The notes under the pieces were generated by a model. It ran no database searches, had not been told where the DNA came from, and saw only the letters and a program-made list of their open reading frames with translations. Below, in pieces: positions 28,989 to 39,633 of a stretch of DNA of 64,000 nucleotides (position 1 is its first letter; each line of letters starts with the position of its first letter). The translations under genes were made by a program, and so were the position numbers. The stretch is from assembly GCF_053078305.1 (NCBI RefSeq), contig NZ_CP166879.1; one strand, given 5' to 3'.

Positions 28989-29639
28989 TTGGCGATTCGT
29001 CTTCACAAACTGGCTGTTGCTTTAGGTGTCTTTATTGTTAGCGCTCCTGCCTTTTCGCATGGTCATCACTCACACGGCAAACCCTTAACAGAGGTCGAAC
29101 AAAAAGCTGCTAATGGTGTTTTTGATGATGCCAATGTACAAAACCGAACGCTCAGTGACTGGGATGGAGTCTGGCAATCCGTTTATCCTTTACTGCAAAG
29201 TGGCAAACTTGACCCCGTCTTTCAGAAGAAAGCGGATGCAGATAAAACTAAAACATTTGCTGAAATTAAAGATTATTATCACAAAGGTTATGCAACAGAT
29301 ATCGAGATGATTGGCATTGAGGACGGCATTGTTGAATTCCATAGAAATAATGAAACAACATCCTGTAAATATGATTACGATGGATACAAAATACTCACCT
29401 ATAAATCAGGCAAGAAAGGCGTTCGTTACTTATTCGAATGTAAAGATCCTGAAAGCAAAGCCCCTAAATATATACAATTTAGCGATCATATAATTGCACC
29501 ACGAAAATCATCTCATTTTCACATTTTTATGGGTAATGATTCACAGCAATCTTTATTAAATGAAATGGAAAACTGGCCAACGTATTATCCATATCAGTTG
29601 AGTAGCGAAGAAGTGGTCGAGGAAATGATGTCTCATTGA
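28989..29639 (+). CDS. zinT: zinc/cadmium-binding periplasmic protein ZinT (YodA)
   Basis: ORF 28968..29639; probable TTG start at 28989 for 216 aa; signal peptide and His-rich HGHHSHG. Confidence 0.88.
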
Positions 29640-29981
29640 GTATTCTCATGATAACGCCTCGATGCCGCTTTAGTAAGTCATCATAACTGCCACTGGTCCA
29701 TCCACAAACGCCACTGAACGCAAGCTAGCTACAGACACGCTCATCACTATGACGTGTCTGTATATTAATAAGCTAACCCGCATTGAGTTAACCAATAACG
29801 GATTCCATACATAATACGGCCAACAGAGAAAGATACCTGTGCTCACGCCATTGCTTATATTGGCTGGTTACAATGTGCACTATCAATTTTTTAAATAACA
29901 AATTCTTAAAACCACATCTGTATAAGGAATTTTTAAGGTTCGTGGGATAGCTTGACTGTGAAAATCACAGGAGCTACAAAA

Positions 29982-30512
29982 ATGAACCGATTCTCAAAAA
30001 CTCAAATTTATTTACATTGGATAACGCTGCTTTTCGTTGCAATAACCTATGCCGCGATGGAACTCCGTGGCTGGTTTCCTAAAGGTAGTAGTACTTATCT
30101 GCTAATGCGAGAAACACATTACAATGCGGGTATATTCGTTTGGGTGTTAATGTTTTCACGCCTGATTATAAAACACCGTTATAGTGATCCTTCTATTGTG
30201 CCACCGCCACCTGCCTGGCAAATGAAAGCGGCTTCGCTAATGCACATCATGCTTTATATAACCTTCCTTGCACTTCCTCTGCTGGGGATTGCTTTGATGG
30301 CTTACAGTGGAAAATCGTGGAGTTTCCTTGGTTTCAATGTGTCTCCCTTTGTTACCCCAAACAGCGAAATTAAAGCACTGATAAAAAATATTCACGAAAC
30401 CTGGGCAAATATAGGCTACTTTTTAATCGCAGCTCACGCTGGCGCAGCACTCTTTCATCACTACATTCAGAAAGATAATACTCTGTTACGAATGATGCCT
30501 CGCCGCAAATAA
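29982..30512 (+). CDS. yodB: cytochrome b561 family protein YodB
   Basis: ORF 29952..30512; start at MNRFSKTQIYLHWITLLFVAITYAAM gives 176 aa. Confidence 0.88.
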   Translation: MNRFSKTQIYLHWITLLFVAITYAAMELRGWFPKGSSTYLLMRETHYNAGIFVWVLMFSRLIIKHRYSDPSIVPPPPAWQMKAASLMHIMLYITFLALPLLGIALMAYSGKSWSFLGFNVSPFVTPNSEIKALIKNIHETWANIGYFLIAAHAGAALFHHYIQKDNTLLRMMPRRK

Positions 30513-31081
30513 GTCGATCCCCTGACAAGGAAATGTGAACCATGGACATCAACGCGTCATAAATGTTTACGCAAGTGCACAATGCACCCTTTCCACTATC
30601 AACAAGGAGGAGCAGAAACTGTGTAAATCGTACAATGGTAAGACTTATCAAAAATACAGGTTAATTTTGGTATTTAAACCTTTTTTACTTGTTAGTATGA
30701 TACAAAGGCTTTCAAAAAAGCTGGGAAATTCAACAACTCTTGGAAATTATGGACTTTGTCCCGCGGCTTTAATCTGACGGCCGCGTTCCTTTTTTGACTC
30801 AATTATTGACCCCTTCTCTACGCAACTTCGGTTCCCACCACCAACTTTGCGGCAGTTTCATAGGATGAATGTCTAAAAGAATAATGGTGAGCGATAAGAA
30901 AACGACTGAATAACTGCACATTTTCGCTCGAAAGCTTCCTGTCAGATCCATAGCGAATCAAGTGCTGAATGTCACAGTATCGAACAGAAAACAGTGACGA
31001 TCTAACCCTTCAAGAATATTCTACGATTGTTCTGTTTAGGAAAAGCAAGGCGGGAAGTCGGGAGATAAGTCATTGATAAAG

Positions 31082-31143
31082 TGGCGGAGAGAGGGGGATT
31101 TGAACCCCCGGTAGAGTTGCCCCTACTCCGGTTTTCGAGACCG
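31082..31143 (-). other. 3' fragment of tRNA-Ser (serU-like), probable prophage attachment-site repeat
   Basis: Minus strand reads CGGTCTCGAAAACCGGAGTAGGGGCAACTCTACCGGGGGTTCAAATCCCCCTCTCTCCGCCA (anticodon arm to CCA); the flanking sequence cannot form the acceptor 5' strand or D-arm. Confidence 0.8.
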
Positions 31144-31352
31144 ATGATACCGAACCGTAAAATCAAAAGGTTATAAATTTTTCTTGGAATAAATGTCTTA
31201 AAAACATACACGCAAAATCAATAAATTACGCGAAATTTGAGAAGAATATTCCAAGCCTTCTTTGAGTTATTTTTAACCATCTTGCTGTTTTTCTTTCTGA
31301 TAAAATATTGCCTGATATCCCTTAACATTACTAATACTTGCGTAGTGAATGT

Positions 31353-31682
31353 ATGAACAATCCGAATCCATGCATGACGTGTGGTGCCTGTTGTGCATTT
31401 TTCCGCGTCTCTTTTTACTGGGCTGAAGCCGATGATGCTGGCGGTACTATTCCCGCCAGGCTCACTGAACAAATATCCCCTTTTCACCGATGCATGAGCG
31501 GTACCAATCAGAAAAACCCCCGATGTGTCGCTCTGGCGGGAACTCCGGGTAAAAACGCATATTGCTCTGTTTACAAAAACCGTCCGTCCACATGCCGGGA
31601 ATTCGCAATGTCCGGAGAAAATGGCATCGCGAATGATGCATGCAACCGCGCACGGGCAAAATACGGACTTCCGGAAATCTGA
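31353..31682 (+). CDS. YkgJ-family cysteine-cluster protein
   Basis: ORF 31338..31682; start at [23 protein letters not shown] gives 109 aa with CxxCxxCC; AT-rich upstream. Confidence 0.6.
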
Positions 31683-31844
31683 AAATTATCCATATCAACA
31701 GAGTGCTCCTGAAACAAGATCAGCATCACGTACAGAATTAACATTTCCGTGGCAGTATTCGTCCGGCATAGTGTATACCTTCACAATAATGACATAATCA
31801 ACGCAGTTCATGGGGGAGGTGATGGTCCCCCATCTTTTTGTCTG

Positions 31845-32516
31845 TTATTCCTGTGCCCAGCCAACCCTGTATGCCAGTATCTCATCCGCACTGGTCAGCT
31901 TTTCCAGCTCCTTCTTCATGGTGCGCTGCCGGACGTGGATTTCCATCCCTTTGGTGAACATCGCCTGCTCTGCCGCTTCACTCAGCGCTATAAGCTCTTC
32001 TGCTGTCACCCCCACATCATTGTTTTCCGCATCCGTCCAGAAAAACGCCTCCGGCAGTTTCCCCGCTTTCGCTGCCGCCACCGATGGCTCAAGACGCGTC
32101 TGCGTTGACTTCCCGTAGTCCCATTTACGCCCATTGTGCTCAAACGTGTAGTTCGCCGCTTCCATCGCATTACGCCAGGCGTTAATTTCATCGCCCTTCA
32201 TCCCTCGCGCTTTCTCCGCGGTCAGCAGGTCCGTGATTTTCTCCCCGTCAAAACCCCAGCGCCCCGAGATGTCAGCTTTGCGGTTTTCTTCCGTATCCGC
32301 CACCTCCACCACACTCTGGCCCACTGGCCACAGAACTGATGCCACCCTGCTGATGCCGGTAATGACTCCGGCACTGTTATAAACCACCTTCAGCGTCTCT
32401 GCTGAAAATAACGACTGACACTCATACCAGTCCTGACCATCCTCTGATTTCAGGTACATCGCACCCGGCACATCCGGATTTTCCGGCGTGTATTGTCTGA
32501 AATTCTTTATGTGCAT
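31845..32516 (-). CDS. tfa: tail fiber assembly protein (Tfa-like)
   Basis: 223-aa ORF MHIKNFRQYTPE...WYECQSLFSAETLKVVYNSAGVITGIS...VVEV...RKADISGRWGF, typical Tfa N-terminal pattern; immediately downstream of stf. Confidence 0.8.
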   Translation of the reverse strand: MHIKNFRQYTPENPDVPGAMYLKSEDGQDWYECQSLFSAETLKVVYNSAGVITGISRVASVLWPVGQSVVEVADTEENRKADISGRWGFDGEKITDLLTAEKARGMKGDEINAWRNAMEAANYTFEHNGRKWDYGKSTQTRLEPSVAAAKAGKLPEAFFWTDAENNDVGVTAEELIALSEAAEQAMFTKGMEIHVRQRTMKKELEKLTSADEILAYRVGWAQE

Positions 32517-32557
32517 CTGTAAGTCCTCCCGGTTACATGTCTGAAAGATGATGCGCT

Positions 32558-34285
32558 TTATAATGGAAAATACTCAAACCCCGAAGCTCCTGACGACACA
32601 TACTCACCCACGCTGACTGTACGCCACTGAGAACCATCAAATGTCACCTGAAGCGGCCTGTAAGATACCCTGTCAATAAGGGTTTTGTTTCCGTCGTTGT
32701 AACCGCCAATCCCCGTAATCATTGCACCAATATCCAAATCCACTGCCCATGTAGTGCTGTCTGTTTGCGGCGCATAAGTCTGTTTATTACCCAGCCTGAT
32801 ACCCACAACCCGGCTCTTCCCGTCTGATGCCCCGGGCGGCCCCATCGGCCCGGTTTCTCCACGCTCACCTCTGGGACCGGGGTCTCCTTTCTCCCCTTTC
32901 GGTCCCTGCGCTCCCCGCGGACCAGCGGGGCCTGTTGCTCCCGTTTCACCTTTCGGACCCTGTGCTCCGGGGTCGCCTTTCTCTCCTTTCGGACCGGGAA
33001 CACCACCTCCTGCTGCAGCCTCTTCTGCCTTTGTTTTCGCTTCATTTGCCACATCCATTGCCGCCTTCACGGCCTTCGGCGTGGCTGCCTTTGTTTCGTC
33101 ATTACTGCCAGTATCACTGCTTAACTGCACCACACCTTTCTGCGTCGTGCTGGCATCCCGCTGGCTGACCGTATCCGGTTTGTTTTTTGTGCTGTAATCC
33201 ACCCGCCAGTGGAAATACCGTGTGTCGCCGTAAACCGTACAGGTACAGACCGTGCCATTAATAAACCCCGTTGCACCGTATTCGCCAATGGTGACCCGGA
33301 CTATGGCAGCCTCATACGTTCCCATCACCTCAATGACACAGCCACCCAGATTGAGTTTTCCCGGTCCGACATCCGTGATGACTTTATTCATTGACGCAAG
33401 CAGTGATGCCTTCATCATCCAGTAAGGCTGGTCAAATGCCCCTTTTTCTTTCAGCCAGGCAACAAACTCGCGTGTTTTCCATTCACCGGCCCCCGTATGA
33501 ATGTCCCGCCCGTATACTCTGGCTGCTCCCACGGTGTTCAGAAACTTCACCTTATCCGGGATATCGTCACCGTTTTTCGCTTTCTCCAGGCATCCGTCCG
33601 CTTTGTCCATTGCCGCTTTCACCGCTTTCGGGGTGGCTGCCTTCGTTTCATCATCACTGTCCGTTGCGCTGCTTAACTGCACAATTCCCTTCTGTGCCGT
33701 CGTCGCATCCGGCCCTCCCGGCTCGCCTTTTTCGCCCTTCTCTCCCCGTTCACCTTTCACACCCTGAAGCCCCTGTGGTCCTGTCTCACCACGCTCACCC
33801 TTTGGCCCCCGCTCGCCGGTATCGCCTTTTGGCCCGGGAATACCCTGCGGCCCGGTGTCCCCCTTATCCCCCTTCGGTCCCCGTGCATTCTCTGCCCGTT
33901 TTTTTGCCTCCTCCGCACTGGCTGCGGAGGCTTCCGCACGTTTCAGGATTTCCGCTGCCACCGCTTCCAGCTCTGCAAGGGCTTTCGGGTAATACTGTGC
34001 GTCTTCCAGGTCCATCAGAAATTTATTCAGCGTTCCCGGTGCAGAATCCGCCTTCACCAGAATGTCACCCACATATGACGGCGCGTACCCTTCCGTGTTC
34101 AGCGTCACCCGGTACAACCCCGGCTCAACATCCATACTGTAACTGCCGGTTTCCCCCGGCAGACCATACGCCACCGTGGTGACAATCACCGTCTCCGTTG
34201 TGCGTCGCGCTTTCAGCTCTATCGTGCATCCCGGTACCGCTTTTCCCGTACCATCCTTCAGCACACCCGATATTCTGACTGTCAT
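32558..34285 (-). CDS. stf: side tail fiber protein with collagen-like Gly-X-Y tracts
   Basis: 575-aa ORF; N-terminus [28 protein letters not shown] resembles lambda Stf; two [17 protein letters not shown] tracts and two [10 protein letters not shown]...[15 protein letters not shown] motifs. Confidence 0.85.
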
Positions 34286-34427
34286 GGATTTCCCCCATAA
34301 AAAAACCGCAGTACCGGTTTCCCGGCCTGCGGTAAAATTTGTGGTTTGTTGGTGTTAAAACGGTGCCATCCGGCTGACCACCCTCAGCAACCGGTCGGCG
34401 GGGGATATTCTCCCCCGCCACGGTTTC

Positions 34428-34568
34428 TTACTGCTTACACTGTAAGAACGCCGCAATCTCCGCGCCCGCTATCCGGAACCGGAACTCGCACAGTGAACTG
34501 TGGGTGATCCAGATAATGAGCACTACCGTGATACAAATCACGGTGGTTTTTAACGGTTTTTGCGACAT
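34428..34568 (-). CDS. Hok/Gef-family type I toxin-like small membrane protein
   Basis: 46-aa ORF below the track cutoff: MSQKPLKTTVICITVVLIIWITHSSLCEFRFRIAGAEIAAFLQCKQ; preceded by AAGGAG; TM helix plus LCExRxR...E[IV]AAF pattern. Confidence 0.55.
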   Translation of the reverse strand: MSQKPLKTTVICITVVLIIWITHSSLCEFRFRIAGAEIAAFLQCKQ

Positions 34569-34766
34569 AAACGCTTGCTCCTTTTACGGAGAGGCGCTAA
34601 CCTTCCACTTGTTGAAGGTAGGAACGTCAGGCCTCGGGTTAAACATGAATGTTTGTCCGGGGCCTTTTCACATCCGGCCTTCAGGTGCTCCCTCCGGCCA
34701 TCAGCCAAAGGCACCCGCGCATAATGTACGGTTTTTGTCTCCTTCCGGCAATCCGGCTCCTCATGA

Positions 34767-37700
34767 TCACGAAATACTGATACCCGCCGTGGACTTCTTC
34801 ATCACGACAACCAGCAGATCGCTGATACTCGCTGTCGGGTACCATCCATTCACCAGCCAGGCAGACACAGAAAACTCCAGCGTCATATGCCCCCTTCCTG
34901 CAGGCATATCAATCACCCCTGAATACACCTGAGACTCAGCCAGCGCCGTCCTTTCAAAAAGCACCCTGCCGTTACATTTCACCATCAGCCGGCATGATGA
35001 ATAAATATCGTTATGCTCTCTCTCATGTTTAGCGCCGCTGAAAGCCACTGCCGGGATCACAATTTGCCGGTCAAAAGGCTGATCGTCATAAATCCTGACG
35101 GTAATGGTCCCCGATGGCCACCGCTCCGGTGCGCGGGAGTCCCGCGGGAAAGCCTTCCCCACGGTTTTAACAATATCGCCTTCAATCTGGTTGGCAGACA
35201 GTTTTCCAAGTATCCGGCAGTTCTGGTTAATGGTCACATTATTGAGCGTGCCCGAGTTCGCACTGATATGTCCGCTGATGTCCGCATTGCGGGCCGTCAG
35301 CCTGCCCTCCGGCGTCAGGGAGAACGTCGGGGGATTGCCGGACGAGGTGATGCTCACTGCAAACAACCGCTTCAGGAACACATCGTTCATGAACAGCTGA
35401 TTCCCCTGCGCCACAAACAGCGGCGTGGTGTTGCCGTTCTCCGGGTTAATCATCGCGATACGGTCCGCCTGCAGCAGTATATTGCTCAGGGGCTGGCCAT
35501 CAGCATCCTCAATCCCCGCACCAATACCGGCAACATACGGAATGCCGTTTTTCGTTTTCTGCACCTTCAGCATGTACAGCGCAGCCAGGTCGTTATTTGT
35601 GTCTGTCTGCACCCGCTGTATCTGCTGTATGGTGGCACTCTGGTCTTCCAGGGTTTTACTGACCGTCTGCGTGATTTCATTGCGGGTTTCGGTGATGGTG
35701 GTCTTCATCTCCGCCATCTCATCATCAAGCTGGCTGTTATCAATCAGCTCCCACATCCCCTGTGCCAGATGTGTCTTCCCGATTTCTCCTCTGAAAAAGT
35801 CCAGATACCCTTCCGCATCATTGCTGGCCCGGCCACTGGCTTCCACAAACGCAGATTTCCCCACCAGGTTGACGCTGCGCACATAAAACCAGAAATCCTT
35901 CCCCGGCTTAATGTGCGGGCCGGAGACACTCCACTGGCGGCCTGTCCCCAGATAACGGGCAGAGGTTTCCACCTGAGATGTGTCTGCGATTTTTGCCTCC
36001 GAAAACCAGAACTCAAATTGTACCGTCGGGTCATACACCGTAAGATGCGGGACCGCCGTTATCTGATAATACCCCGGCGTCAGCTCAATGCTGTCCGGTG
36101 CTGCCGGGGCGTTAATCCGGAACGTGGTGGTGGCAGGTTCGCCCTGCTGGCCGTAGCTGTTTATCGCCCTGACCGTCAGGGTGTATTCCCCGGGCGGCAG
36201 GCCACTGAAACGGTGCTCCGTATCGGCAGTGATGGCGCTGGTCACCAGGCGGCTGTTTTCACCACTGCCACTGGTCAGGCGCAGACTGAAGCGCACGCCC
36301 TTCACCACCCGCGGCGTGTCCCATTTTGCCAGCGCCATATACTGGCCGTCTGAGGCACTCACCTCCACCGTGAGGTGCTGCACTGCCGGCGGGATGACGC
36401 TGTTCAGTGAACCGGAGAGCGGCTCAAAGCGGGCCCCGTTATCCACGATGGCTTCTTTTTCCGGTACGTGCTGCACTGCCGTGATGGCAAAGGTGCCGTC
36501 CGTGTTTTCCCGGATGGAAACACAGCGGAACAGGCGACGACGCAGTGACGGCAGGGAGAGTCCCCACACACCGTATGTCTCCACGCCATCCGGCAGGGCG
36601 CTGACCTGTATCCGGTCAGGGGCGGGGTGTGCAGTGATGTCCACGCGCACCGGCTTACCGCTGCCGTTAATCAGGTTCACCGTCGATGTACCTGCTTCCG
36701 GCAGTGTCACCTCACGGTCCAGCGTCAGTGTGCGGCTGGCGGCATCGATGGACAGGATGCGTCCACCGGTCAGGGTCCCGGCATAGTCGTTATCACAGAT
36801 TTCAATGATGTCACCGGGCGTGTGCCGCAGCCCCTGTGACCCGAGCATGAAATCCACCGTCTGTGTTTCCAGCAGTTCTGTCTTTATCACCCACAGTCCG
36901 GCACGGTGGGCCTGACCGCGGCTGGTACAGCCGAACGCATCCATCTTCAGCAGATTGCGCCCGTAGCGCAGGATGGCGTCCGGGTCTTCCACCAGTTCCG
37001 TGGAAGTCTGCCAGCCGTTCTGCGGGTCAGTGTAATTCACCTCCACCGCCGTGTGCCGGTCCTTCAGGGCACTGAAGCTGTAGCGGAACCCCACGCCGTT
37101 ATCATCCACCACCACATCGCTGTTGGTGTACGGCCACACCACATCCGACGGACGGTCCTGAACGAACGTCAGCGTCTGGCCGTTCCATACCGGCATACAG
37201 CGCATCGCCGAGCAGAAATCCCCCAGGACATCCCACACCTTACGCTGCTGTGACAGGTACGCATTGAAAGTCATCCGCGGCTCTGTTCCCCCGAAACCAT
37301 CCGGGACCGTCTGGTCACAGTACTGCCCGATGGCATACAGTGCCCACTTGTCCACGTCCGGGGCCCCCAGGCGTTTTCCCATCCCGTAGCGCGGGTGGGT
37401 CAGCATGTCCCACAGGCACCAGGCCGGGTTATTGCTGTATGCCGGTTTCAGACTCCCGTCCCAGATACCGCTGTAGGTGCGTTTTTCCGGGTCATAGTTT
37501 GACGGCACCTGAATGATGCGACCACGGATATGGTAGTTCACCGTCAGCTGCTGGCCACCAAACTGCTCCGCATCCACCTGCAGCCCCACAATGGCCGTGT
37601 TCGGGTAGCACTGTTTCACATCGATGATTTCGGTGTATGACGACCACAGCGTTCTGTTCTGCAGCTGGTCCGTGGTGCTGTCCGCCGTCTCCCTGACCAT

Positions 37701-38240
37701 CCGGATGTTAAAGGGGCGCTCAGGGAGATTATTCAGAATCACCGACGTCAGGTACTGCGAGGTGGTCTTGCCGTTAATGGTGATATCCTTCTCCGTCACC
37801 CAGTGCCCGTTACGCTCAAGCTGAATCAGCAGGCGGACAGAAGAGGGATTACGGTCACCCTTTGAGGTGGTCTCCACCAGTGACTGTACCCCGAAGGTGA
37901 CCCGCAGACGGTCAATGTTCGCTGACGTGATGGTGCGCGTCACCGGCTTTGCCTTCGTCACCTCCACGCCCAGTGCGGTTTCCGCCCCGGAGGACTCAAA
38001 GCCTTCCGGCGGTGTCTGCTCCTGCTCCCCGGCACGCCAGACGGCGGTCACACCGTGTATCACAGGATTACCGTCCGTGTCCGTCAGCGGGGTTTTGTTC
38101 ACCAGAATACTCTGCAGTCCCTTCACCGGGCCTTCCACCGGTCCCTCACCAATGGCATCAATCACGCTCATCATCTGCGTGGATTTGAGATTGTCCTTCG
38201 CCTCACGCGGTGTGTGCCCCTTGCCGCCCCCTTTACCCAC
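34767..38240 (-). CDS. J: host specificity protein J (central tail fiber)
   Basis: ORF 34767..38291; GTG start at 38240 gives [22 protein letters not shown] aligned to lambda J N-terminus; similarity along most of the length, C-terminal 150 aa divergent. Confidence 0.92.
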
Positions 38241-38280
38241 TCTGTCCCCCTCTCCTGTCTGATGTCTGAATCTGTTTATG

Positions 38281-38314
38281 CCCAAAAACAACAGGCACCC
38301 CGGAGGGTGCCTGT
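38281..38314 (-). terminator. intrinsic terminator-like hairpin upstream of J
   Basis: Minus strand: 9-bp stem CAGGCACCC/GGGTGCCTG, loop, then TTGTTTTTGGG. Confidence 0.5.
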
Positions 38315-38329
38315 GTCATGACGGAATAA

Positions 38330-38488
38330 AATTTCTGAAATTCTTCACATTTCCGGCAATTGCCTGTAGCCACTATAATGACGCAGCGTTACAGTTTTTT
38401 TGCTCAATAAAAGCAATAATTATCAGACCTCCTTAAGGTGACTATTCGTCTCCCGTCAGTATCCGGCGATATTACGGGAGATTTTTTT
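38330..38488 (+). ncRNA. candidate small RNA, unit A
   Basis: TATAAT at 38374-38379, about 95 nt to terminator tcccgt...acggga plus T7. Confidence 0.35.
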
Positions 38489-38572
38489 GCTTCAGCCACA
38501 CCACAACATCCTGCTCATTTACGCCACTGGTACCCTGGCGGTCATCCGTTCTGTAAACCTGCGACAGAAAAA

Positions 38573-38722
38573 GTCTGAATTTCTTCACATTTTCTGTACG
38601 TTCCCGTGGCAGATATCATTCCGGGGCGTTACAGTTTTTTCGGGTCAATAAAAACAAAACTCCTTGAACGTTAATCTTCATCGGTTCTGTCCCGCAGTCT
38701 CCGGACTCTGCGGGATTTTTTT
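38573..38722 (+). ncRNA. candidate small RNA, unit B
   Basis: Same conserved box; weaker -10 (gatatcat); terminator cccgcagtctccggactctgcggg plus T7. Confidence 0.3.
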
Positions 38723-38800
38723 ATCCCTTAACCCCGGCATGATGTTTTCTGTCTTCTGCCACAGATACCCGGCAAGCTCCCTGCACCTCTGCAGCAAAAA

Positions 38801-38948
38801 ATTTCTGAATTTCTTCACATTTTCGCAAAATCCATGTGGCGCTTATAATTTCGCTGCGTTAATGTTTTTCTGCCCAAAAAAATAACTCCATAACGTTAAT
38901 CTTCATCGTTATTTCCCGCAGCTCCGCTAACTCTGCGGGATTTTTTTT
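38801..38948 (+). ncRNA. candidate small RNA, unit C
   Basis: TATAAT at 38844-38849; terminator cccgcagctccgctaactctgcggg plus T8. Confidence 0.35.
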
Positions 38949-38952
38949 ATTT

Positions 38953-39633
38953 TTATCCCCGCCCGATAACCACCACTTTCCCGTCTCCGCCCTCATCACG
39001 GGTGCTGATATCCTGGGATATCCGTCGTGAACCAACCAGCATTTCACCGTAAGGCACCGGCATCGGGTTACCCTGGGCAATCATGTTGTCCAGTGACGAA
39101 AAATACGTGTTCTGTTTACCGTTATCCGTACTTTTATACTCCGGCGTCTTTGCCTTCGGGGCCAGCATCTGAGCCACACCACCCAGTATCATGCTGGCAC
39201 CCAGTGAGAACAGCATCGTGGTGGCAGTCAGCCCTCCGGCACTCAGGGCTGCGCCCCATGCCGCCAGTGTTGCACCACCAGTGAAAAATGACCCGACAAT
39301 CGCTGCAACCCCCAGCACCACCTGAAAAACACCATTTCCCCCGGCTCCGGCCAGTCGCGGCACAATGTGGATGACCGCTCCCTCACCCAGTTGTTCGTGA
39401 AGACGGGCGTACACCGCCTCCGGTGCGGTATCCTCACCGGCAATACGTATCTGATACCAGCCTTCGTTCATCTGACCGCGGAATCCCGGCACCTGCAGCG
39501 ACAGGGCACGGATGGCCTCCGCTGCCGTGTTCACATACAGGCTGATGCGGCGACCAAATCGTTGTAAATCCCCGTGAAGGCAGATGCGGACCAGTGGCGG
39601 TGACGCCAGACAGAATGCGTTCGTCGTTGCCAT
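38953..39633 (-). CDS. I: tail assembly protein I
   Basis: 226-aa ORF MATTNAFCLASPPLVRICLHGDLQRFGRRISLYVNTAAEAIRALSLQ... resembling lambda gpI. Confidence 0.9.
   Translation of the reverse strand: MATTNAFCLASPPLVRICLHGDLQRFGRRISLYVNTAAEAIRALSLQVPGFRGQMNEGWYQIRIAGEDTAPEAVYARLHEQLGEGAVIHIVPRLAGAGGNGVFQVVLGVAAIVGSFFTGGATLAAWGAALSAGGLTATTMLFSLGASMILGGVAQMLAPKAKTPEYKSTDNGKQNTYFSSLDNMIAQGNPMPVPYGEMLVGSRRISQDISTRDEGGDGKVVVIGRG

Follow-up and report, generated by a model that had tools for sequence, protein, structure and literature searches.

A collagen-like side tail fibre of a lambdoid Escherichia coli prophage with two Pf2 repeats around a Mu-type domain

Here we describe the side tail fibre gene (stf) found on the minus strand at positions 32558-34285 of a 64,000-nucleotide (nt) stretch of DNA from NCBI RefSeq assembly GCF_053078305.1, contig NZ_CP166879.1 (the whole stretch is called the window below). 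The open reading frame (ORF) is complete from ATG to TAA and encodes 575 amino acids (aa); the gene is intact and belongs to a lambdoid (siphovirus) Escherichia coli prophage. Its product contains two collagen-like tracts and, between them, two copies of the Pf2 repeat that enclose a globular domain resembling part of the S' fibre protein of phage Mu. We propose that the protein most probably forms a homotrimeric side tail fibre that was assembled from modules circulating in other phage types. Fibres of this kind are already known as the EPcl collagen-like fibres; the present protein differs from them in its Mu-type globular domain (hereafter the knob), its second Pf2 and a tip other than the PfC domain, and our literature search found no paper describing a two-Pf2 architecture.

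Domain organization and the internal repeat

The identification of the gene as a side tail fibre gene, already made in an earlier note on this DNA, is borne out by its N-terminal domain and by its position. All three genes concerned are on the minus strand, in the order J (34767-38291), stf (32558-34285) and Tfa (31845-32516), which is also annotated in two related prophages (strain 2013C-3033 and Phi1720a-02 are among the relatives compared). The protein begins with a collar or anchor domain (PfN; aa 1-95, 34001-34285) that belongs to PF08400 (E = 6.8e-40 over aa 1-134); its aa 1-91 match the collar domain of lambda Stf (PDB 9E7M, chain Ta, and 9MGH; E = 2e-27), and aa 1-129 are 51% identical to lambda orf-401. 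Still inside the PF08400 match, a short Ala/Glu-rich helical segment (aa 96-135, 33881-34000) leads into collagen; it corresponds to the PCoil of EPcl proteins and, by analogy with them, may adopt a coiled-coil state.

The remainder of the protein is made of collagen-like tract 1 (aa 136-192, 33710-33880), Pf2 copy 1 (aa ~193-228, 33606-33713), the 137-aa knob (aa 236-372, 33170-33580), Pf2 copy 2 (aa ~377-412, 33054-33161), an Ala-rich linker (aa 413-427, 33005-33049), collagen-like tract 2 (aa 428-487, 32825-33004) and a C-terminal domain (aa 488-575, 32558-32824) that profile comparison and an AlphaFold2 model suggest to be a Mu/P2-type tip with a 19-aa extension. The module order is therefore Col1-Pf2-[137-aa globular domain]-Pf2-linker-Col2. 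Both Gly-X-Y tracts that the earlier note had recognized are present, with 19 triplets in tract 1 and 20 in tract 2; they are uninterrupted and are both covered by the Pfam Collagen family (PF01391, E = 1.6e-17, two stretches).

The motif KG[IV]VQLSS is found at aa 199-227 and again at aa 383-411, and corresponds to PF03406 (Phage_fiber_2, here Pf2; E = 2.9e-35, two stretches). In the DNA, they appear as a direct repeat of 108 nt with 80% identity and a start-to-start spacing of 552 nt (self-blastn, E = 2e-23), which is far above chance and above the low complexity of Gly-X-Y; the refuting outcome named in the earlier note, a lack of any repeat other than Gly-X-Y, did not occur. The collagen tracts behave differently: the best in-register identity between them was 0.667 over 45 nt, compared with 0.607 ± 0.030 for triplet-shuffled controls (p = 0.06), and over their full length they are 43-54% identical, varying with register. 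We therefore rejected the tracts as duplicates of each other, their similarity being no greater than that of the shuffled controls. Tandem Repeats Finder detected no tandem repeat across 32400-34400, even at a minimum score of 30. Accordingly, the internal duplication that had been claimed for this gene holds for Pf2 but does not extend to the collagen tracts, which are not demonstrably related, and there is no duplicated motif-plus-collagen unit. The associated claim that the motif precedes each tract is correct for the second motif, whereas the first comes after tract 1. Pf2 (36 aa) is the sole repeated unit, in a mirror-like Col-Pf2-X-Pf2-Col layout.

The Pf2 copies are 77-80% identical in nucleotides and 81-83% in amino acids. 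Between them, the proportions of synonymous (pS) and nonsynonymous (pN) sites that differ are 0.64 and 0.115, respectively (pN/pS 0.18); as the differences are thus mostly synonymous, the copies are old and both are under constraint.

The closest known kind of fibre is that of EPclA-D, the collagen-like prophage fibres of enterohaemorrhagic E. coli, whose modules are PfN, PCoil, Col, Pf2 and PfC; experiments showed that EPclA trimerizes and forms a collagen triple helix (Ghosh et al. 2012, PMC3368898). Sp5 ORF67, a homologue of EPclB, is essential and was located at the tail end by immuno-electron microscopy (Mondal et al. 2016). The stf protein shares with EPcl proteins the uninterrupted Gly-X-Y domains flanked by PfN and Pf2 by which they are recognized. 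It resembles especially EPclB (933W Z1483 / Sp5 ECs1228) and EPclC (P-EibA ORF-401), which likewise consist of PfN, a short PCoil, Col, Pf2 and Col; the position in the tail module also matches, and the N-terminal 148 codons of stf are 89% identical in nucleotides to P-EibA ORF-401. Compared with EPclA-D in their published description, however, stf adds a second Pf2 and the 137-aa Mu-S'-like domain between the collagen tracts. Its PCoil is also shorter (~40 aa versus 88-116 in EPcl) and its tip is of a non-PfC type. The Pfam scan of the protein gave no match to PfC (PF06820) at E <= 0.01, and the stf protein would therefore group with the non-PfC EPcl types C and D.

The relationship to lambda Stf (orf-401/orf-314) is confined to the collar, which is 51% identical, and to Pf2, of which lambda has one repeat with 64-68% identity. 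Where the stf described here has collagen, lambda Stf has a long Ala/Ser-rich coiled coil, and the distal part of the lambda fibre (orf-314), which is T4 gp37-like and binds OmpC, has no BLASTP match in stf. The earlier suggestion that the C-terminal region differs from lambda Stf is thus confirmed: only aa 1-129 and the Pf2 copies match orf-401, and nothing matches orf-314. Lambda Tfa also has no BLAST relation to the Tfa encoded here.

The Mu-type knob and the tip

Residues 222-369, which include most of the knob, share 40% identity with Sv', the variable part of the G(-) fibre of Mu. By sequence, residues 111-324 of the Mu S' structure (PDB 8JU3) align to aa 193-372 (E = 1e-29), with Pf2 and knob contiguous. 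An AlphaFold2 model of aa 193-377 had a mean predicted local distance difference test score (pLDDT) of 81, with a core above 90, and the knob model gave a single significant fold match in the PDB, again 8JU3 (E = 9.4e-15, root-mean-square deviation of 2.3 Å over 135 columns). The knob family comprises 253 representative clusters among 1.8 billion proteins. Its domain occurs at 40-46% identity in P1 Sv', P2 H and the P7, D108 and PSP3 fibres, and Pf2 is contiguous with it in the P1, P2, P7 and D108 fibres as well. In 150 representatives of the family, Pf2 followed the knob in only 4 and collagen followed it in only 3.

When aa 1-427 of 42 distinct relatives were compared, positions with at least three residue states were found only in the knob, at aa 272, 296, 298 and 299 (window ~33389-33472). 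The stretch aa 295-299 reads LLASM, LPAVL, LPAAM, LHAEF or LHAGF in the relatives, and may be a surface loop under diversifying selection.

At the profile level, the C-terminal tip is assigned to the Mu/P2 tip family and not to that of lambda. A profile of six E. coli collagen-fibre tips matched a profile of fourteen myophage tips with an hhalign probability of 97.9% (E = 6.3e-13). For the AlphaFold2 model of the tip, the top PDB match in Foldseek was 5YVQ, the Mu fibre-chaperone complex (E = 0.03, probability 1.00). The motifs RLG, TG, RP(I/L)Q (RPLQ) and W are conserved in the tip, and a word-indexed homologue search with the tip returned fragments only.

The Mu fibre S' (gp52, PDB 8JU3) with U', and S/U (5YVQ), therefore offers a second point of comparison: Pf2 followed by the same globular domain, the same tip family and a U'-like N-terminus of Tfa are common to both systems. 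In contrast to stf, the Mu protein is the fibre of a myovirus; it lacks collagen and differs in its N-terminus, and ~90 aa of another domain stand where stf has Pf2, linker and collagen. The variable part of the Mu fibre is carried on the invertible G segment with the Gin invertase, whereas neither an invertase nor a long inverted repeat is seen here; stf itself holds only a 15-nt inverted repeat.

Module exchange and the origin of the second Pf2

Searches of 5,426 complete E. coli genomes showed that the stf gene is annotated at 97-99% identity in ~38-40 of them. It is enriched in human and food isolates of E. coli that produce Shiga toxin (STEC) and is also present, at 97% identity, in Phi1720a-02, a functional Shiga toxin 2d (Stx2d) phage that lysogenises Citrobacter rodentium. 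Comparison with 1720a-02 and with strain 2013C-3033 gave pN/pS values of 0.14-0.15, indicating purifying selection on stf.

The distal part of the locus is shared with phages of other types. Over 33709-31667, which extends from Pf2 copy 1 to ~180 nt past Tfa, the window is 96.9% identical to the podovirus phiSTEC1589-Stx1c; the left breakpoint of this homology (33709) coincides with the first base of Pf2 copy 1. The gp54 fibre of this member of the Sepvirinae (short-tailed Shiga toxin (Stx) phages) thus has Pf2-knob-Pf2-Col-tip, together with Tfa, in common with the stf locus. In P13771 ORF65, Pf2-knob-Pf2 is shared (95% identical), and the collagen tract and C-terminus after it differ from those of stf. 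The O104:H4 outbreak Stx2a phage, of the same species as P13771, has a fibre (P13374 ORF65) that lacks exactly the knob and one Pf2 (184 aa); its single Pf2 is like copy 1 at all discriminating sites, after which the sequence changes to the one found after copy 2. Unlike stf, phiSTEC1589-Stx1c gp54 and the P13771 and P13374 fibres start with an N-terminal part specific to podoviruses and contain a first collagen region that is much longer, and the C-terminal region of the latter two is unlike that of stf. The Pf2-knob-Pf2 arrangement also occurs, without collagen, in a P2-like myophage fibre with a P2-like N-terminus (P0133). P-EibA ORF-401 (EPclC) has the same anchor as stf and a single contiguous Pf2-linker-collagen-tip unit, and the Ala-rich linker follows the single Pf2 both there and in P13374 ORF65. 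Last, partial matches in E. coli genomes break at gene nt 444, 524, 577, 1314 and 1332, positions that lie inside collagen or at Pf2 edges.

These data allow us to propose how the fibre is built. The collar domain (aa 1-~91) would anchor it to the tail, its lambda counterpart being located at the junction of tube and tip; in the published Ur-lambda structure, 12 StfN domains make up a collar where gpV meets gpM, and there are four trimeric fibres. By analogy with EPclA, three chains may associate, and the helical segment with collagen triple helix 1 (57 residues, ~16 nm) would form a proximal rod. Pf2 copy 1 would lead into three globular Mu-S'-like domains, which make up the knob, and Pf2 copy 2 with the Ala-rich linker would connect the knob to collagen triple helix 2 (60 residues, ~17 nm). 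The small Mu/P2-type tip, as the putative site of host contact, is expected to sit on this second rod, and its folding may be helped by the downstream Tfa, by analogy with homologous fibres. Each Pf2 heads a module that is found alone elsewhere (Pf2 and knob in Mu, P1 and P2; Pf2, linker, collagen and tip in P-EibA ORF-401), and we therefore suggest that two modules were brought together, so that the two Pf2 copies would be the heads of juxtaposed units. Pf2 and the collagen tracts would then serve as recombination joints at which distal host-recognition modules are swapped between phages.

Several observations weigh against this modular reading. The AlphaFold2 models are monomeric, and their Pf2 part is of low confidence (pLDDT 47-66). 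The single-sequence match of the tip to Mu is insignificant (i-Evalue 140), the link to Mu being evidence at the profile level, and the profile of the E. coli tips alone reached E = 0.0098 only against a different fibre, 9CUY. The difference between P13374 and P13771 may be an insertion or a deletion. Furthermore, the Pf2 copies are about equidistant from each other (77-80% in nucleotides) and from the Pf2 of P-EibA ORF-401 (75-76%), which leaves an ancient intragenic duplication as a possible origin.

In that alternative, which appears unlikely, the second Pf2 arose in an ancestral fibre by an old intragenic duplication through unequal crossing-over, with the knob already in place or captured between the copies, and the resemblance to other fibres seen today would stem from the entire cassette having spread later. 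It would account for the copies being as close to each other as either is to any Pf2 examined, with that of lambda further away (66-67%), and for Pf2-knob-Pf2 travelling as a unit in three fibre contexts. However, at synonymous sites the copies have diverged almost to saturation (pS 0.64) and carry no signal of a recent event. In the Mu, P1 and P2 fibres, where a second copy is absent, copy-1 Pf2 is contiguous with the knob, and a regular-expression scan found that 142 of the 150 knob-family representatives lack a Pf2-like motif within ~60 residues after the knob. Copy 2 and the linker are, for their part, contiguous with collagen in P-EibA ORF-401.

A functional extension of the modular proposal, that the fibre is bivalent, seems to us quite improbable as it stands. 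The knob would then be a second, lateral receptor-binding site ~17 nm from the tip across collagen tract 2, and gain or loss of the cassette would switch host range while leaving the tip untouched. Hints in this direction are that the Mu knob lies in the variable, host-range part of its fibre, that the multi-state residues of aa 1-427 are confined to the knob among the 42 relatives, and that Phi1720a-02, which bears this fibre, lysogenises Citrobacter, also a host genus of Mu G(-). Both cassette states exist in the Sepvirinae, with the knob in P13771 and without it in P13374.

Length variation in the fibre bears on a further alternative, namely that a motif-plus-collagen unit was duplicated in tandem and is now a hot spot for length change in stf. 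Among relatives that share aa 1-427 and have a PfC-like tip, tract 2 ranges from 24 to 72 triplets with modes at 36, 48 and 60; it has a 36-aa period with 83% self-identity, and the modes follow from this 12-triplet unit. Tract 1, by comparison, has 19 triplets in 102 of 104 relatives. In proteins with the tip found in the window, tract 2 was always 20 triplets among those seen, and in one variant protein tract 1 is shortened by a deletion of 40 aa. Among the 30 best of 38 complete E. coli genomes, 29 carry the gene with this tip at 1728 nt, and the remaining copy spans 1727 nt. That copy, in E. coli 2018-166, is annotated as two products and is probably a frameshifted allele. The fibre-length variation anticipated in the earlier note is therefore real for tract 2 in the family but is not seen in the allele with the tip of the window. 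With a synthetic deletion query, no Pf2-Pf2 deletion allele was found in the 5,426 E. coli genomes; the 30 best places were all two-piece full-length matches. Although the presence of two motifs plus two collagen tracts within a single protein, and the variable collagen length among relatives, would be expected from such a tandem duplication, it is very unlikely: the order is Col-Pf2-X-Pf2-Col and not (Pf2-Col)x2, the tracts are no more alike than shuffled controls, no tandem repeat was detected, and neither the near-constant gene length nor the missing Pf2-Pf2 deletion product points to a hot spot.

Least credible of all is that the protein is a bacterial surface or secreted collagen mimic in STEC virulence and not, or not only, a virion component: the enrichment of the gene in human and food STEC isolates and a weak, sub-threshold similarity to the adhesins Lcl and Scl (79-84 bits versus cut-offs of 325-500) speak for it, but the adhesin matches are limited to the Gly-X-Y tracts and far under the family cut-offs, a signal peptide or anchor is not evident in the sequence, the gene lies within the late tail operon between J and Tfa with an N-terminus equivalent to the lambda collar domain, and a homologue has been localized to the phage tail end.

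Genomic neighbourhood and implications

J and Tfa, between which stf lies, are likewise tail genes. J (34767-38291), the central tail fibre or tip attachment protein, matches six gpJ-specific Pfam domains and the general tail-protein family PF13550 (E = 1e-24 to 1e-41). Tfa (31845-32516), a tail fibre assembly protein of 223 aa, matches phrog_11571 (E = 1.7e-150) and, weakly, Caudo_TAP; its C-terminal half is DUF4376 (E = 7e-17) and its first 104 aa share 41% identity with Mu U' (E = 5e-23). The protein encoded after the same tip in phiSTEC1589-Stx1c agrees with it at 219 of 223 aa. Downstream of Tfa, the prophage adjoins the E. coli host genes yodB and a YkgJ-family gene. In related prophages, an Eib/YadA-like gene follows Tfa (L001 14847-21015, compared with window 31338-31845), and in strain 2013C-3033 an S6-family peptidase, of the SPATE (serine protease autotransporter of Enterobacteriaceae) type, is additionally found there. 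As Tfa is directly followed by the host genes in the window, this prophage is without the Eib/YadA-like and peptidase cargo.

Between J and stf, on the minus strand at 34428-34568, lies an ORF of 46 aa encoding a Hok/Gef-family toxin (PF01848, E = 2.4e-11), which is also annotated in strain 2013C-3033. The lambda order is J-lom-stf-tfa, and the hok-like gene here takes the place of lom. An Rfam gathering scan of 29000-39000 gave zero matches, and thus no Sok-like RNA beside the hok-like gene. In another E. coli contig, a 568-aa protein (P0135) joins the C-terminus of J, in the same reading frame, to mid-knob sequence of Stf, the two meeting at an AWL tripeptide that both contain; a deletion between J and stf, with loss of hok and of the first half of stf, seems to have produced it.

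Just upstream of the stf start codon (~34300-34335) there is a GC-rich hairpin with a T-run, and a promoter and terminator scan inside stf gave nothing interpretable. We discarded a long plus-strand ORF at 33391-34182 and other overlapping antisense ORFs as side effects of the collagen codons, which are periodic and GC-rich. No tRNA was detected by ARAGORN anywhere in the window.

Further into the tail-gene cluster, on the minus strand at 41193-42347, there is a gene for an OmpC-like porin of 384 aa (PF00267, E = 6e-144), and the related prophage L001 has an annotated "porin OmpC" at the matching place in its tail cluster. A prophage-encoded porin might alter the receptor landscape of the lysogen, since lambda-type side fibres can use OmpC as a receptor.

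The fibre described here is a worked example of tail fibres built from interchangeable parts, with little import beyond phage biology. Within it, the Pf2 boundaries are natural splice points that may be adopted in engineering for the retargeting of fibres. The exchange spans three tail morphotypes, as a siphovirus anchor is joined to a knob, tip and chaperone of myovirus type, and the distal module is near-identical in short-tailed Stx phages. For the epidemiology of STEC, this means that host-range modules would be exchangeable between Stx phages and resident lambdoid prophages.

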